Shown here piece after piece: positions 7,012-61,980 of a stretch of DNA of 64,000 nt; the first letter of the stretch is position 1, and every line of letters starts with the position of its first letter. Location: NCBI GenBank assembly GCA_965222715.1, contig OZ244961.1, positions 140,609 through 204,608 of the forward strand, given 5' to 3'. The notes below the pieces were generated by a model that was given only the letters and a program-made list of their open reading frames with translations, had not been told where the DNA came from and ran no database searches. The stretch is from Minisyncoccota bacterium (GTDB lineage Bacteria > Patescibacteriota > Minisyncoccia > Phycocordibacterales > JABMNX01). The translations under genes and the position numbers were made by a program.

Positions 7012-7315
7012 GGTTTAGTTTGGTTTACATAGAGGCTTCAAGAAAGGGGAAGTGACAAATGGGTGCGACTGTTGAGGTTATTGTAAAGAGGCGTTTCGGA
7101 AGGGATGAGCGAAAGGTGGCTCAGAGACGGGCGGCTCGTCCGTGTGTACCGAGTTCGATCCGGAACGTCAGACCAGCAAGAATCGCAACCTCGGGGGTTG
7201 TCAGTGCGGCGGCCAGGATGGCAGGTGTCGCAAGAGTCCGCGGCATATGAAACATAAGCCGGACTGGATGCGCCAGTACTAGGGGGCACAATCACGAAAT
7301 ATCACAAAATACATG
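7012..7315 (+). ncRNA. GC-rich ~300-nt transcription unit of unknown nature (candidate structured ncRNA, or Arg-rich 63-aa small ORF 7059-7250)
   Basis: bounded by promoter 6976-7004 and terminator 7316-7350; GC far above genome background; weak resemblance to SRP-RNA helix-8 (GTCAGACCAGCAAGAATCGCAACC) not confirmable by eye. Confidence 0.25.
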
Positions 7316-7350
7316 GGGGCGGTTTGAGATAACTGCCCCTTTTGATTTGT
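7316..7350 (+). terminator. rho-independent terminator (GGGGCGG...CTGCCCC + T-run)
   Basis: GC stem followed by TTTTGATTTGTTTTTT. Confidence 0.6.
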
Positions 7351-7403
7351 TTTTTAAATTCTCATAACCAATTCTCTTAGTTCGGGATGGATTAGGATAT
7401 ATA

Positions 7404-7432
7404 TTGACTATTTAATCAAAATATTATATAAT
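7404..7432 (+). promoter_or_regulatory. sigma70-type promoter (TTGACT-17-TATAAT) for the GGDEF gene
   Basis: TTGACT 7404-7409, TATAAT 7427-7432; AGGAGG RBS 7467-7472 then ATG 7481. Confidence 0.5.
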
Positions 7433-7480
7433 TAAATTTAGATCTAGTCAGTATACTCATGCTACGAGGAGGTGTACATT

Positions 7481-8155
7481 ATGAGTGACAGTACCGCTAT
7501 TCCGCGTGTTGGAGATATCTCTGAGCGCGAGCTCGAGAACCTTCCGCACAAAACTCTGGTCGCGTTCGCACTGCGTGCGCAGTCGTTGGCAACGATCGAC
7601 GACATGACCCAGATTCTGAACCATCGCGCGTTCGAAGAAGAGGCCACTCGCCACTTCAACCGTATGAAGCGTAATGGTGATGAAGGGGTGATGCTTCTTC
7701 TGGACATCGACCTCTTCAAGAGGGTTAACGACACCTACGGCCACCTCGGCGGTAATGAGGTGATCAAAAAAGTTGCCAGCATCATGGAGGCATGTACTCG
7801 GCCCAGCGATCTCTGTGGACGCTATGGTGGGGAGGAGTTCATCATCTTCCTTCCCAATACCGGTAAGCAAGAAAGCAAGCTGGTCGCCGAGCGGATCCGC
7901 ACCATGGTCGAAGGGTCCACGGTGAAGTTCGAATCCCACGACATTTCATGCACGGTGAGTATCGGCCTCGCACTTCTTTCTGATGCGGAAGATCTCGAAG
8001 GCCTGATAGGTTCGGCCGACCGAGCGCTCTACAAGGCAAAAGGCGGAGGTCGGAATCGTGTCGTCACGGCTGATGCGAATCTCAACGAAAAGCGTCGCTT
8101 TACTGGAAGCAGCGATCGTCGTGGTCAAGATGTTCCGGATCGTCGGAAATCCTAA
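7481..8155 (+). CDS. diguanylate cyclase (GGDEF domain), GC-rich, likely horizontally acquired
   Basis: GGEEF active-site motif, RxxD I-site (RPSD) five residues upstream, conserved DxLT..NRR-like segments; codon GC well above neighbours; track start 7472 is a GTG inside the RBS, so ATG 7481 is preferred. Confidence 0.8.
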   Translation: MSDSTAIPRVGDISERELENLPHKTLVAFALRAQSLATIDDMTQILNHRAFEEEATRHFNRMKRNGDEGVMLLLDIDLFKRVNDTYGHLGGNEVIKKVASIMEACTRPSDLCGRYGGEEFIIFLPNTGKQESKLVAERIRTMVEGSTVKFESHDISCTVSIGLALLSDAEDLEGLIGSADRALYKAKGGGRNRVVTADANLNEKRRFTGSSDRRGQDVPDRRKS

Positions 8156-28774: not shown

Positions 28775-28800
28775 AAACGCCAAGGGTACCCTTGGCGTTT
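28775..28800. repeat. conserved palindromic terminator repeat copy 2 (AAACGCCAAGGGTACCCTTGGCGTTT)
   Basis: same AAACGCCAAG...CTTGGCGTTT arms as copies at 4386, 41432, 48668, 56993, 60593. Confidence 0.6.
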
Positions 28801-39335: not shown

Positions 39336-40475
39336 TTATTTTTCTTCCTTCGGTACTTCTTTGTAGGCAAGTGTCATACGTTGCTCTTTTGGCTCAAAGA
39401 GTGTGATAGTAAATTCGTACGTCTTCCCAAGTTCAAGTGTTTTGTGCAATTCTTCTTCTGACTCAAACTCTGAGATGTGTACCAATCCAGCAACACCTTC
39501 TTCAATTGAAGCGAGGGCACCATGTTTGTTGTACTTAATGATCACACCACTTACCTTGCTGCCTTTAGCATACTTCTCAGCTGCTTCGTTCCATGGATTT
39601 TCTTTAAGCGCCTTAATTGAGAGTGAGATCTTGCCGTTTTGAATATCAATCACCTTTACTTTTACTTTCTCACCAACTTGGTACACCGTTCGTGGGTCTT
39701 CAACCAGCGCCCAATCAATTTCTGATATGTGCACCAATCCTTCAAGTCCTTCTCGAAGTTTTACAAAGACACCAAAATCAACCGCACCAGTCACTTCACC
39801 TTCAAGTACGTCACCGATTGTGTAATCCTCAACATCGGCATCAGTTGCTTCTTCTGGAGATTTTTCAGAGAAAATCATTTTGTTCTCTTTCGGGTCAGCA
39901 GTAATCACTGATACTGAAAGTTTTGTACCAATGAGTTTACGAAGCTCTTCAAGGATACGGTCCTTGTCTCCATCTTCTACACGAGGGTAGTTTTCAGATT
40001 TAAGTTGAGACGCAGGAAGGAATCCTTGGATACCTTGCCACTCAAGAATAAGTCCTCCTTTGTTTGCATCTTTAACAGGAAGTTCAAGAATGGTTTTATT
40101 CGCTATTGCCTCTTCTGCTTCTGCCCAAATAAGTGCTTGTCGTGCTTCTTTAAGTGAGAGTTCAATGTAGCCACCCTCTCCTTCAGTGTCGACAACTTTT
40201 GCAGCAATACTATCGCCAACATTTGTTTTACGCAAAATGTCGCGTGCGTTCATAAACTCACGACCATAGATAATACCAGTGCCAAATGGTGGTAAGTCGA
40301 TAAAGATATGTGAACGATCAATGGCAATAACTGGTCCCTCAACCAAATCACCCACTTGTGGTGGGTTAGGGGTGAGCTCAGAGAGCTCAGTCATGACCGT
40401 CTTCTTCTTTTTTACATCTGTATCAGATGTTTTTTCATCTACCTTCTCAGATGGTGTAATTGTTGTTTCTGTCAT
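39336..40475 (-). CDS. rpsA: 30S ribosomal protein S1 (four S1 domains)
   Basis: 379 aa with repeated S1 OB-fold segments. Confidence 0.75.
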   Translation of the reverse strand: MTETTITPSEKVDEKTSDTDVKKKKTVMTELSELTPNPPQVGDLVEGPVIAIDRSHIFIDLPPFGTGIIYGREFMNARDILRKTNVGDSIAAKVVDTEGEGGYIELSLKEARQALIWAEAEEAIANKTILELPVKDANKGGLILEWQGIQGFLPASQLKSENYPRVEDGDKDRILEELRKLIGTKLSVSVITADPKENKMIFSEKSPEEATDADVEDYTIGDVLEGEVTGAVDFGVFVKLREGLEGLVHISEIDWALVEDPRTVYQVGEKVKVKVIDIQNGKISLSIKALKENPWNEAAEKYAKGSKVSGVIIKYNKHGALASIEEGVAGLVHISEFESEEELHKTLELGKTYEFTITLFEPKEQRMTLAYKEVPKEEK

Positions 40476-40612
40476 AAAAATGTGTGAGAGGTGCTGTGCT
40501 ACTGAACAATGTCTCTAGAGCCTTTCTTCGTATCAGTAGGGTTAGCAGCACTTCTCGCTAACAAAAAACCCGCATCTACGGGGTAGCAGTACTATACTTT
40601 GCTGGTGCATAA

Positions 40613-40657
40613 AAGTCAAAAGTAAAACCGCCCCAAGCACTTCTGCGCTTGGGGCGG
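40613..40657 (-). terminator. GC-rich intrinsic terminator for the GC-rich secreted-protein gene
   Basis: minus-strand CCGCCCCAAGC gcagaagt GCTTGGGGCGG followed by TTTTACTTTT. Confidence 0.6.
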
Positions 40658-40710
40658 GGGTTGAACGGGAACGACGATTTGATCGTCAGAGAGACTTCGG
40701 CACCGGCCGA

Positions 40711-41229
40711 TCAGGATGCGATCGTCAGACCGCTCCAGCCGCCGGACAGCAGGGTCGTCTTCAGCAACAGGCCGGACGTACCGGAAGTGTCGATGAAGTC
40801 GTTGTTGGTGTCGAACGCCGCGACCTCCAGCGCGGAGGGCGGCATCTTGGCCAGGCCGGCGGTCGTGCCGACGTTCAGCTGATCGAAGTCCATGAAGGCG
40901 CTCACCTGGTCGAGATCGTGGATCACGACGTTCGGCGGGTTGCCGATGTCGGCGCCGTCGGAATACAGAAGCCACTGGGTCCGGTCGAAGTCGGACAGAT
41001 CGCCGATGTCGGCCAGCATGGTCTGCTGGCGCGCGGCCGGCGTCGTCGAGTCGTTGGTCGTGACCGAGCAGTCGAACGCCGCGACCTCCACCGCGGTGCC
41101 GTTCAGGCCGATGTCGACGTCGAGCGCATTGCAGTCGTTACTGGCGAGCGCCGCGTTCGGCGGTGCCATGGCGACGAAACCCAAGATGGCGGCTGCCATC
41201 AGCGGGGTCATGAAGAAACGTTTCCTCAT
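40711..41229 (-). CDS. secreted hypothetical protein with internal EVAAFD repeat, GC-rich (likely horizontally acquired)
   Basis: 172 aa from ATG 41229 (GGGAG RBS); signal peptide MRKRFFMTPLMAAAILGFVAMAPPNAALA; about 63% GC versus about 39% background. Confidence 0.55.
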   Translation of the reverse strand: MRKRFFMTPLMAAAILGFVAMAPPNAALASNDCNALDVDIGLNGTAVEVAAFDCSVTTNDSTTPAARQQTMLADIGDLSDFDRTQWLLYSDGADIGNPPNVVIHDLDQVSAFMDFDQLNVGTTAGLAKMPPSALEVAAFDTNNDFIDTSGTSGLLLKTTLLSGGWSGLTIAS

Positions 41230-41377
41230 TCGCTTTTCTCCCATTCGAGTGTGAAGAACAGTGCCTCACTGTTGAGACCTGCCCAGTGTATCATATAAAG
41301 AAATATTGTCAAGTCCTCACATATGTGGTGTGGAAAACAACTTTATTACTTAAGAATGTGTGTAAAATGAAAGAAAT

Positions 41378-41403
41378 AAACGCCACGAATACCCTTGGTG
41401 TTT
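41378..41403. repeat. degenerate copy of the conserved palindromic repeat (AAACGCCACGAATACCCTTGGTGTTT)
   Basis: arms diverged from AAACGCCAAG/CTTGGCGTTT. Confidence 0.45.
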
Positions 41404-41431: not shown

Positions 41432-41456
41432 AAACGCCAAGGGTATTCTTGGCGTT
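41432..41456. repeat. conserved palindromic repeat copy (AAACGCCAAGGGTATTCTTGGCGTTT)
   Basis: intact arms; lies in a divergent intergenic region. Confidence 0.6.
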
Positions 41457-41491
41457 TAACGCGGCAGCCTTCTCGTGTATACTAATCGGAT

Positions 41492-42124
41492 ATGGTTATC
41501 ACACATCATGGAGGCGAGTGTATAAAAGTTACACAAGGCGATACGACACTTGTCTTTAACCCCATCTCAAAGGAATCAAAACTATCTGGATCAAAATTTG
41601 GTGCAGATATTGCACTTATCTCAACCAACGACCCTGACTTTAATGGTGTTGAGCAGGTTACTCGGGGAGATAAAGCCCCATTTGTTATTCAGGGCCCGGG
41701 AGAGTATGAGGTGCAGAAAATTTTTATCAAAGGGTTTCCATCAGTATCTCACTATGGCGGCAGCGAACGACCTAATACTATCTACATGGTCACGCTTGAG
41801 GGCATGAATCTTTGTTTTCTTGGTGCACTCTCAGAGAAAAAAATTGAACCAAAAGTGCTCGAAGATATTGATAGTGTTGATGTGCTCTTTGTGCCTATTG
41901 GGAACGATGGGGTACTCAATGCAGCAGACGCACACGACGTTGCGGTAAAGCTCGAGGCGCACATGATTATTCCTATCCATTACGATGGTGTTGGTGATAA
42001 AAATGCACTCTCTACATTTTTAAAAGAAGGAGGCGCTGAAAAAGTAAAGCCAGTTGAAAAACTTTCAATTAAGAAAAAAGATGTCGAAGGAGCAACTGGA
42101 GACATTGTCGTATTATCTTCATAG
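41492..42124 (+). CDS. metallo-beta-lactamase-fold metal-dependent hydrolase (UPF0173/Lactamase_B_3-like), degenerate metal motif
   Basis: 210 aa, MVITHHGGECIKV N-terminus resembles M.ITWLGHA...IE of this family. Confidence 0.5.
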   Translation: MVITHHGGECIKVTQGDTTLVFNPISKESKLSGSKFGADIALISTNDPDFNGVEQVTRGDKAPFVIQGPGEYEVQKIFIKGFPSVSHYGGSERPNTIYMVTLEGMNLCFLGALSEKKIEPKVLEDIDSVDVLFVPIGNDGVLNAADAHDVAVKLEAHMIIPIHYDGVGDKNALSTFLKEGGAEKVKPVEKLSIKKKDVEGATGDIVVLSS

Positions 42125-60693: not shown

Positions 60694-61980
60694 TCAACAC
60701 TTCAAACCAAGTTCCTCGACAACGATACGCCGCACTTCTTGCGCAGGATCATCGGCGTTGATGATTTGTCTGCCAGAGACGATTGCGTTTGCGCCAGCTT
60801 CCATTGCTTCAGTTGGGGCCATCACACGTTTTTGGTCGTTCGTTTCAGCTTCGGGGGAACGAACTCCTGGGGTAACTCCAAAGAGATCAGGATATTTCCC
60901 CTTAACTTTCCCAATCTCTTTGGGCGAACAGACGATACTGCCGACATTGACTGCGTCGACAAGCTCTACGAGACGAAGAACTTGCGTCATCGACTTGCGG
61001 CCAAAAATTTCACCACAGTCATCGTCGCTGAGGGATGTGAGCACCGTTACGGCAAGAGTTTTGATACCGTGCGGGTGGAGCATATCCACTGCCTTTTGCA
61101 TCATCGCTCGACCGCCCGATGCATGGATCGTTAGCGCCCATGGATAGAATTTGGGATCCATGTCGATGATATGTTGGCAGTAGTTCCCGATCGTGTTGGG
61201 TATGTCATGCAGCTTCGGGTCGAGCATGACAGGACCGTACACGGCCAAGTCTTCAGCGATGGCAAAGCCCTCTTTGAGGAGCAGGTCGTTGACCTTGAGG
61301 CCACAACCTGTTCCTTGGAGTGAGGAAGCCAGCTGGAGCGCTGTTTGACGATTCATTCCATCAAGCGCCACAATGACTTTTGGATCTTCGTGGCCAATTG
61401 GAACGAAGATCTCTTTCCGAACGTCGTGCAGCGTTGCACCAGCCCAGACGTCCATATCTACGCCGTGTTCTTGGAACATTTGTTGCCACCCCTGCTCGCG
61501 ATCAACAAGGACCACAAGTATTGGTGTTGCACCAGCGGCGCGGATTGCATGATAAGCATCCAGTTTGGATGCCCCGTCGGTAATCACGTCGTCGAGGATG
61601 GCGACGCGTTCTCCGGCAAAGATCTCACCGATCAACTTAGCATTCCCGACTCGGCCGCTCTTCTCAGTTTCTCGGATAGTGGCATACGGAATACCGGTCA
61701 TGTACGAAACAACACCGGCGATACCACTTACCGAAGAAGGAACCTCAACAAATCGATCGACGTCGAGTCGTCGAAGAGCGTTGGCGTAAATGCGTGCCAA
61801 CGGTCCAGTTGATTCCGGGGCCGAGCGATGGTCACGTATGTTGATGTAGGTGTCGGTCGTGCCACCTTTTTTGAGTGGCAGACCTCTTGAAGGGTCGTAT
61901 TTCAACAACCCAGGATGAGATCGGATGAGCTGAATTGCGGCCCGTTGTTCAGGTCGCGTGAGAAATGTCACATGCTCCAC
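60694..61980 (-). CDS. bifunctional orotate phosphoribosyltransferase / orotidine-5'-phosphate decarboxylase (PyrE-PyrF fusion), GC-rich
   Basis: 428 aa: N-terminal PRTase (VAILDDVITDGAS), C-terminal OMP decarboxylase (VIVALDG...LKVND); GC about 53% versus about 39% background. Confidence 0.75.
   Translation of the reverse strand: MEHVTFLTRPEQRAAIQLIRSHPGLLKYDPSRGLPLKKGGTTDTYINIRDHRSAPESTGPLARIYANALRRLDVDRFVEVPSSVSGIAGVVSYMTGIPYATIRETEKSGRVGNAKLIGEIFAGERVAILDDVITDGASKLDAYHAIRAAGATPILVVLVDREQGWQQMFQEHGVDMDVWAGATLHDVRKEIFVPIGHEDPKVIVALDGMNRQTALQLASSLQGTGCGLKVNDLLLKEGFAIAEDLAVYGPVMLDPKLHDIPNTIGNYCQHIIDMDPKFYPWALTIHASGGRAMMQKAVDMLHPHGIKTLAVTVLTSLSDDDCGEIFGRKSMTQVLRLVELVDAVNVGSIVCSPKEIGKVKGKYPDLFGVTPGVRSPEAETNDQKRVMAPTEAMEAGANAIVSGRQIINADDPAQEVRRIVVEELGLKC

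Follow-up and report, generated by a model that had tools for sequence, protein, structure and literature searches.

Why should a small and strongly GC-rich gene lie beside a ribosomal protein gene in an AT-rich genome? The question is raised by a stretch of 64,000 nucleotides (nt) from a Minisyncoccota bacterium (GenBank assembly GCA_965222715.1, contig OZ244961.1, positions 140,609 to 204,608), which we refer to as the window. Between rpsA, the gene for ribosomal protein S1, and a gene for a metallo-beta-lactamase (MBL)-fold hydrolase, the window contains an island of about 65% GC (positions 40628-41229) in a genome of 42% GC, and the island holds an open reading frame (ORF) of 172 amino acids (aa). 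An initial annotation of this DNA described the island as a foreign segment wedged between the two genes and pointed to a high-GC donor. We consider it fairly probable that the island is instead the local allele of a native, fast-evolving accessory transcription unit, here called the slot gene, which in this genome encodes an exported and very acidic protein.

The interval between the MBL gene and rpsA in relatives

Relatives were gathered by RpsA from genomes and metagenomes and by exact look-up of the best protein matches, and independent assemblies of these relatives came from NCBI, ENA, JGI, and Logan data. Together with its gene content, the closest of them put the window in a Paceibacteria/Kaiserbacteria-like member of the candidate phyla radiation. 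The gene order pth, rpsA, MBL gene, small ORF, and gyrA is kept among the relatives. The MBL gene and rpsA border a gap in 68 of the 80 genome loci and in 134 of the 167 loci overall. This gap ranges from 165 to 3419 nt, with a median of 549 nt, and its "empty" state measures about 170-300 nt. A small transcription unit directed toward rpsA occupies the gap in 10 of the 12 informative near-clade lineages (RpsA 79-85% identical), namely, the window and lineages L081, L001, L005, L089, L004, L083, L003, L085, and L090. The unit is also found in the more distant lineages L014, L061, L078, L029, and L038. The check for the same gene in relatives that the initial annotation had proposed thus recovered a unit in the same slot, with a shared promoter layout and stop motif, and its presence in 10 of the 12 near lineages does not bear out a foreign segment wedged between two neighbors.

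The expression signals of the unit are shared across lineages. An exact TTGACA, a spacer of 16-18 nt, and TAnnnT are found in 15 of 18 slot units, a set that includes the more distant L014, L061, L078, L029, L038, and L057, and most units carry TGn before the -10 element. The ATG follows 53-66 nt past the -10 element in most units, and a ribosome-binding site (RBS) motif precedes 15 of the 18 slot ORFs. The RBS and start region of the window matches that of L083 at 17 of 18 nt in register with the ATG (tgggagaWaagcgaATGaRgaa; E 0.005), and a motif in its 5' untranslated region (UTR) matches L081 at 18 of 20 nt (E 0.076). L081 and L004 have the entire promoter and UTR in common. GC-rich terminators of a similar kind close the unit in L001, L081, L083, and L086.

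The other end of the ORF is also shared. The window reads TCC-TGA-TCGGCCGG at its stop codon and L061 reads GCC-TGA-TCGGCCGG, the TGA-TCGGCCGG region of the window agreeing at 13 of 13 nt with L061 and at 16 of 17 nt with L005. L001 and L005 end in ACC/TCC-TGA-CCGGCCGG, L004 has acquired a new stop one codon ahead of ACC-TGA-CCGCCGG, and CGGCCGG lies at most 15 nt from the stop in L078, L115, and L014. The shared end motif of the slot ORFs can be written as CC-TGA-YCGGCCGG. A blastn search with the entire window gap against the first 80 loci returned nothing at E <= 0.01, and the similarity that is seen is confined to short flank matches in register. Since the matches around the RBS and ATG and those around the stop codon lie in register, the GC-rich part starts and stops inside a conserved native unit.

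The slot unit is dispensable. Relative to L081, L002 shows a clean absence of about 520 nt between near-identical flanks, with the whole unit gone, including its promoter. L086 retains only the slot promoter, about 100 nt, and the terminator, without an ORF. L002 is also the sole clean absence, and the empty site expected beside a genomic island is therefore not the rule here, as 10 of the 12 near lineages carry a unit of the same architecture.

Apart from the slot unit, the gap between the MBL gene and rpsA is a generally variable spot in this group. More distant relatives carry other cargo in it, such as a csrA-like ORF of 64 aa (L054) and a methyltransferase-like ORF of 237 aa (L022). Gaps of 2-3.4 kb, in distant relatives among L054, L022, L015, and L076, hold membrane or secreted proteins.

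Composition, divergence, and predicted product of the slot ORFs

The composition of the island changes sharply at both ends, within about 50 nt. In 100-nt windows, GC is 0.63-0.72 across about 40650-41200, against 0.35-0.46 on either flank and a window mean of 0.424. The island is the sole run of more than 700 nt in 200-nt windows with a GC of at least 0.55, the other runs at or above 0.55 being 7021-8121 (a noncoding unit plus a GGDEF gene), the tRNA cluster, and a pyrE/pyrF-like gene. The island ORF has GC contents of 0.58, 0.47, and 0.90 at the first, second, and third codon positions (GC1, GC2, and GC3), and its GC3 lies 9.4 standard deviations above that of the 54 other window ORFs (0.337 +/- 0.060). 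Its third positions are 0.02 A, 0.53 C, 0.37 G, and 0.07 T, versus 0.35, 0.16, 0.17, and 0.32 in rpsA. The minus-strand frame is marked as the coding one by its codon periodicity, which breaks off at the stop codon, and the antisense ORFs are by-products. The island ORF is a real protein-coding gene. An alternative reading of 177 aa from an upstream ATG at 41244 has no RBS.

The relatives share this bias. GC3 is 0.58-0.92 in slot ORFs, compared with 0.23-0.35 in rpsA (0.90 and 0.33, respectively, in the window, 0.85 and 0.29 in L081, and 0.81 and 0.31 in L089). Apart from the slot ORF and its antisense shadow, neither the window nor any of the close relatives scanned has a GC-rich ORF of such high GC3. 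No codon periodicity was detected in the 150 nt past the slot ORF stop. When the slot proteins are pooled, Ala, Thr, Gly, Ser, Leu, Ile, Asp, and Asn are their commonest residues, and Glu makes up 0.9%. Signal peptides are present in some alleles (the window, L083, L029/L038, and L057) and absent from the short ones.

Between the conserved ends, the slot ORFs range from 36 to 172 aa and are unalignable between most lineages. Smith-Waterman comparisons with shuffle controls detected peptide similarity only for L001-L005 (z 14), L090-L014 (z 4.6), and L014-L061 (z 4.0), and the L029 and L038 proteins are also alignable. L029 and L038 have RpsA proteins that are 98% identical and slot proteins that are 64% identical with several indels; dN/dS is 0.70 for the slot and 0.02 for rpsA, and dS is 0.34 and 0.48, respectively. 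For L001 and L005, the identities are 89% for RpsA and 54% for the slot protein, dN/dS is 0.88 for the slot and 0.06 for rpsA, and dS is 0.38 and 1.12, respectively. Where pairs can be aligned, the slot unit is thus inherited with the genome and yet changes quickly. The lower slot dS in L001/L005 could reflect a constraint on third positions or a later exchange of alleles. One lineage is represented by six contigs that come from different samples and agree fully in RpsA; their 46-aa slot ORF is also identical, with only 2 variable columns in 1400 nt upstream and 8 in rpsA. Because the slot ORF is identical across the six contigs, that lineage gives no sign of ongoing hypermutation.

Searches for homologs of the island protein returned only the protein itself, both among 5.8 billion protein clusters (word-indexed search) and among 1.84 billion representatives (exhaustive phmmer scan). 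It has no match to Pfam or NCBIfam families and, by tblastn, none in plasmid and phage collections. The second long allele, the 103-aa protein of L083, has no homolog at all, and Pfam gave no significant match for the slot ORFs of eight relatives. A homolog in a donor, as expected for a genomic island, is thus missing from all of these collections, and the high-GC donor proposed in the initial annotation finds no counterpart in them.

The island protein is predicted to begin with a Sec-type signal peptide of textbook n-, h-, and c-region pattern with an A-x-A site. The translation gives an MRKR n-region, an 18-residue hydrophobic stretch (FFMTPLMAAAILGFVAMA), and PPNA-ALA before SN. The mature part of 143 residues contains 12.6% Asp, 1.4% Glu, and 1.4% Lys and has a net charge of -16, whereas the rest of the window has 5.1% Asp and 8.1% Glu. 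Two internal copies of a 26-nt repeat are identical at 25 of 26 positions, lie 261 nt apart, and are significant within the window (E 5e-5). The internal EVAAFD repeat seen in the initial annotation therefore holds at the DNA level, while in the protein it spans only about 9-13 residues and is not significant alone (z 2.2). Sorting signals (LPXTG, PEP-CTERM, and GlyGly-CTERM) were not found, and the C terminus (...LLLKTTLLSGGWSGLTIAS) has no such motif, no transmembrane helix, and no basic tail. AlphaFold2 without an alignment gave an uninformative model (pLDDT 34). We dropped the idea that the short peptide of the relatives is repeated in tandem to form the island protein, as similarity scores gave no support for it.

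Much of the initial annotation, which had placed a segment of about 650 bp and 63% GC between rpsA and the MBL gene, agrees with these results, and all of the sequence features that it described are present. The coding gene of 172 aa with its signal peptide and many Asp residues, the host-type TTGACA promoter, the GC-rich terminator of its own, in which 10 of 13 stem pairs are G-C, and the lack of a recognizable domain all stand. What finds no support is the interpretation built on them, with a foreign insertion, its donor, and palindromes as marks of the insertion site. The features of the locus are collected in Table 1.

Table 1. Positions in the window of the slot unit, its neighbors, and the 26-nt palindromes
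Feature	Position	Strand	Remarks
Slot gene promoter	41285-41312	minus	TTGACA, 16 nt, TG-extended TACACT; signal scan
5' UTR, 55 nt	41230-41284	minus	small hairpin 41263-41278, GTTCTTCACACT motif, RBS GGGAGA 41237-41242
ORF, 172 aa	40711-41229	minus	GC3 0.90; no homolog known
Predicted Sec signal peptide	41143-41229	minus	residues 1-29, MRKRFFMTPLMAAAILGFVAMAPPNAALA, cleavage before SN
Internal direct repeat, copy 1, 26 nt	41071-41096	minus	encodes ...AVEVAAFD
Internal direct repeat, copy 2, 26 nt	40810-40835	minus	encodes ...ALEVAAFD
Stop codon and conserved GC palindrome	40703-40713	minus	TGA-TCGGCCGG; register shared with relatives
Intrinsic terminator	40618-40657 (stem 40657-40628)	minus	13-bp stem, 10 G-C pairs, loop AGAA, then TTTTACTTTT
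rpsA promoter	40591-40619	minus	TTGACT-17-TATAGT; kept in relatives; native right-hand border of slot unit
rpsA	39336-40475	minus	island neighbor
MBL-fold hydrolase gene	41492-42124	plus	other island neighbor
Palindrome AAACGCCAAGRGTAYYCTTGGCGTTT, two inverted copies	41378-41403 and 41432-41457		between slot promoter and MBL promoter (41456-41483)
Palindrome copy	4386-4411		gene end, after 549-aa gene
Palindrome copy	28775-28800		between two divergently oriented tRNA genes
Palindrome copy	60593-60618		gene end, between convergent genes

Gene callers go wrong at GC-rich slots. For L083, the call on public record (2234-2926) is a 230-aa antisense ORF without codon periodicity, and the 103-aa sense ORF (GC3 0.91), which is preceded by an RBS, is uncalled. 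The 53-aa slot ORF of L081 is likewise absent from the public gene calls. The alleles of L029 (3447-3782) and L038 (8281-8658), of 111-125 aa, have a signal peptide ending in Cys and a GC3 of 0.90-0.92. They contain repeated Asp-rich, GGxGD-like motifs that recall calcium-binding repeats, and Pfam returned nothing for them.

Explanations for the GC-rich slot

In our reading, the slot gene belongs to a Kaiserbacteria-like clade of Paceibacteria, where it lies between the MBL gene and rpsA and has the orientation of rpsA. Across lineages, its near-consensus sigma-70 promoter is kept, as are a strong RBS in a 5' UTR of about 55-65 nt, the stop-codon GC palindrome, and a terminator rich in GC. The ORF itself would change quickly through ordinary substitutions and indels under weak sequence constraint, without a hypermutation device. 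The window ORF is long and was probably enlarged in part through internal duplication, as suggested by the near-identical 26-nt repeat and three copies of GCCGAYATCGGC. The product is most likely exported, because it starts with a Sec signal peptide, and is very acidic and probably poorly structured. It would be abundant and have an extracellular role, which might be cation binding or contact with a host or partner cell.

Several observations weigh against this account. The RpsA identity of any relative in the databases is at most 85%, and the recent history of the locus is thus out of view. The flank matches are short and singly weak (E 0.005-0.08 in a 13-kb search space), and the case for a shared unit therefore relies on collinearity, position, and common architecture. 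The window protein scores z <= 2.6 against every slot peptide (BLASTP E = 35 versus L083), so we make no claim that the window ORF and those of its relatives are homologous as proteins. Export, disorder, cation binding, and high expression are predictions drawn from sequence, and with dN/dS near 1, some of the short alleles could be decaying.

The account also leaves unexplained why GC3 persists at 0.8-0.9 where genomic GC3 is about 0.3. Possible causes are GC-biased gene conversion, selection at third positions, and allele exchange. The hypothesis of GC-biased gene conversion has been described for bacteria (PMC4450053). It is improbable, if worth entertaining, that a locus-specific process holds slot GC3 at about 0.8-0.9 in AT-rich, ultrasmall genomes of the candidate phyla radiation (CPR) while the coding sequence turns over fully, with the conserved promoter and 5' UTR and the CC-TGA-YCGGCCGG motif as its bounds. 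Candidates for such a process are strongly GC-biased conversion at a recombination hot spot fed by natural transformation and an undescribed mechanism that would target the slot through its conserved ends and diversify or replace what lies between them.

The atypical composition and codon usage of the island (GC 0.65 versus 0.42; GC3 0.90 versus 0.34 +/- 0.06, z 9.4) are those of a genomic island. They suggest recent horizontal acquisition from a high-GC bacterium, possibly the host of the episymbiont, with the gene not yet ameliorated to local composition. The codon choice resembles that of high-GC bacteria (CTG, GCC/GCG, GGC, ACC/ACG, and CCG), and the amino acid makeup is alien to the window (Asp 12.6% versus 5.1%, Glu 1.4% versus 8.1%). 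Slot size is variable, other relatives hold unrelated cargo there (csrA and the methyltransferase-like ORF), and two milder GC outliers in the window possess clear homologs. We nevertheless regard acquisition as unlikely, given that a homolog is found nowhere in the clusters, representatives, plasmids, or phages searched. The GC-rich part begins a few codons past the conserved RBS and ATG and ends at the shared stop motif, so that an insertion would need an in-frame swap of the ORF interior alone. Furthermore, 10 of the 12 close lineages have a GC3-rich slot ORF despite a near-saturated rpsA dS (1.12 in L001/L005). No mobility genes, tRNA, or att site accompany the island, which is surrounded by rpsA, pth, gyrA, and the gene for the MBL hydrolase; any tRNA is more than 7 kb away, and flanking direct repeats were not found. 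The sharp change of composition within about 50 nt at each end could also come from high-GC reads joined into a CPR contig, and the genome is a single metagenome-derived contig of 617 kb that has been seen once. Such a chimera or contamination is hardly credible: the island is internal with syntenic host genes on each side, its promoter, RBS, stop motif, and terminator match the same unit in independent assemblies, and the T tract of its terminator overlaps the -35 element of the rpsA promoter. Misassembly, which the initial annotation had proposed to check by read pairs across the junctions, is very unlikely in view of the same unit in independent assemblies, although read spanning itself was not inspected.

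Two further explanations turn on what the unit does rather than on where it came from. That it is primarily a structured or dual-function RNA, with the ORF incidental or secondary, draws on the folding of whole transcripts, which is better than that of shuffles (z -4.8 in the window and -4.2 in L081), on GC-rich, nonperiodic 3' regions of 250-330 nt behind short ORFs in relatives, on L086 with its promoter, about 100 nt, and terminator but no ORF, and on dN/dS near 1. The ORF bodies, however, fold like codon- and dinucleotide-shuffled controls (z -1.8 to +2.1), and hairpins in the UTR and the terminator are thus the probable source of the whole-transcript signal. The GC1/GC2/GC3 values of 0.58/0.47/0.90 form a coding pattern that ends at the stop codon, an RBS motif precedes 15 of 18 ORFs, and Rfam has no match (gathering thresholds, E <= 1) save chance microRNA matches on palindromes. 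We find this explanation quite unlikely and, on the Rfam blanks and the shuffle controls, reject a noncoding RNA reading of the ORF body; in relatives, the GC-rich 3' parts may nonetheless function as RNA. More improbable still is that the slot is a target of programmed diversification in trans, by a diversity-generating retroelement (DGR) or by vls/pilE-like conversion from silent cassettes, with the conserved ends as signals. A variable part does lie between conserved flanks, with a GC-rich palindrome straddling the ORF end, and Borrelia vls, a variable gene that is GC-rich although its genome is AT-rich, is a precedent. Most third positions are C, residues are largely of the NNC type, Glu is nearly absent, and Lys and Gln are low; NNC codons are the expected outcome of adenine mutagenesis of AAC codons. 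However, the 64-kb window holds no long ORF with YxDD and no template-like second copy (a repeat of at least 60 bp differing mainly at adenines), and no second slot copy lies within +/-10 kb in 14 relatives. The alleles differ in length and by indels, which are changes that DGRs do not make. The hairpin after the stop codon (TCGGC-cggt-GCCGA) has a 5-bp stem and a CGGT loop rather than a 7-10 bp stem and a GRNA loop, and the terminator, 54 nt past the stop codon, has an AGAA loop. The coding strand has a little more C (0.35) than G (0.30) and thus a slightly negative GC skew, versus +0.52 in vls, and the slot ORF is identical on the six contigs from different samples of one lineage.

The initial annotation had also reported two copies of a palindrome in the divergent intergenic region and suggested that they mark an insertion site. 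The copies are present and belong to a 26-nt family with five copies in the window, where none are expected by chance. In view of copies at three other places in the window and an unrelated palindrome at the equivalent spot of L001, we reject a role as insertion scars. The palindrome stem has A and T runs at its sides, like a bidirectional terminator or a REP-type (repetitive extragenic palindromic) element.

Other features of the window are noted here in their own right. A milder GC outlier at 7472-8155 is a stand-alone GGDEF diguanylate cyclase gene (GC3 0.61; TIGR00254, E 3e-45), and another at 60694-61980 is a 428-aa gene (GC3 0.53) that looks from its translation like a pyrE-pyrF fusion. 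These two, which have clear homologs, would fit a conventional acquisition better than the island ORF does. Just upstream of the GGDEF gene, the segment 6977-7350 combines a near-consensus promoter (TTGACG-17-TATAAT) with about 300 nt at 53% GC without codon periodicity, and a terminator-like hairpin near 7318-7350 closes it. It has no Rfam match even at E <= 1 and is a candidate for an undescribed noncoding RNA. In the rpsA leader (40569-40619), a short G-C hairpin with a U tract behind it (CCCGTAGATGCGGG-TTTTTT) directly follows the promoter. The leader is kept in L081, L002, L083, and L086 and may serve in attenuation or autoregulation of ribosomal protein S1.

Implications and comparison with known systems

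For the curation of CPR genomes, the lesson is that an orphan ORF in a sharply GC-rich island need not mean contamination or recent transfer, and gene callers may miss a slot ORF or put it on the wrong strand. In genomes of about 0.6 Mb, a dispensable gene that in most close lineages has nevertheless retained a near-perfect promoter, a strong RBS, and a predicted exported product is a candidate for the interface between episymbiont and partner. A GC3 near 90% beside genes of about 33%, with synonymous sites otherwise near saturation, is also a natural test of local composition control. Selection at synonymous sites, biased gene conversion, and allele exchange are the forces that could be tested at the slot.

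The slot gene resembles horizontally acquired genomic islands in its sharp composition contrast and its variable intergenic site beside a highly conserved gene. Unlike such islands, it has no donor homolog, integrase, tRNA, or direct-repeat junctions, its composition border falls inside a conserved native unit, and the anomaly is common to many relatives. Like fast-evolving orphan (ORFan) genes for small secreted or surface proteins, it lacks detectable homologs, has a signal peptide and a biased low-complexity makeup, shows a dN/dS near 1 and many indels, and is present in some relatives but not in others. Unlike plain ORFans, it has expression signals and a stop motif that are conserved across lineages with RpsA 67-85% identical, and a GC3 of about 0.8-0.9 in genomes of about 0.3, which fast evolution alone does not predict.

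DGRs are common in CPR bacteria, and the slot gene is like their targets in that its variable stretch runs up to a GC-rich inverted repeat close to the stop codon and most of its third positions are C. The inverted repeat of DGRs is GC-rich, with a stem of 7-10 bp and a GRNA loop, lies 4-34 bp past the variable region, and is frequent but not universal (PMC6602519). The slot differs from DGR targets in that no reverse transcriptase or template repeat was found in the 64-kb window (copies were also sought within +/-10 kb in 14 relatives), its alleles vary in length, its hairpin does not fit, and it has no evident C-type-lectin-like scaffold. The vlsE/vls system of Borrelia offers another variable gene for an exported protein with a G+C content far above that of the genome. 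Its cassettes have 49% G+C versus 28.6% for the genome, from which the authors infer selective pressure for upkeep, and they combine a GC skew of +0.52 and G runs with adjacent silent cassettes about 90% identical to the expression site (PMC11499132). The slot is unlike vls in its slightly negative skew, the lack of a second copy in 64 kb, and its invariance in one population.

Some small RNAs have a dual function and encode a short peptide, as do RNAIII with delta-hemolysin and SgrS with SgrT. The slots of the relatives are similar to these in their strong promoter, an ORF of 36-56 aa, a long, GC-rich, structured 3' part, and a terminator. Unlike in dual-function RNAs, the ORF of the window fills nearly the entire transcript and has a predicted signal peptide.

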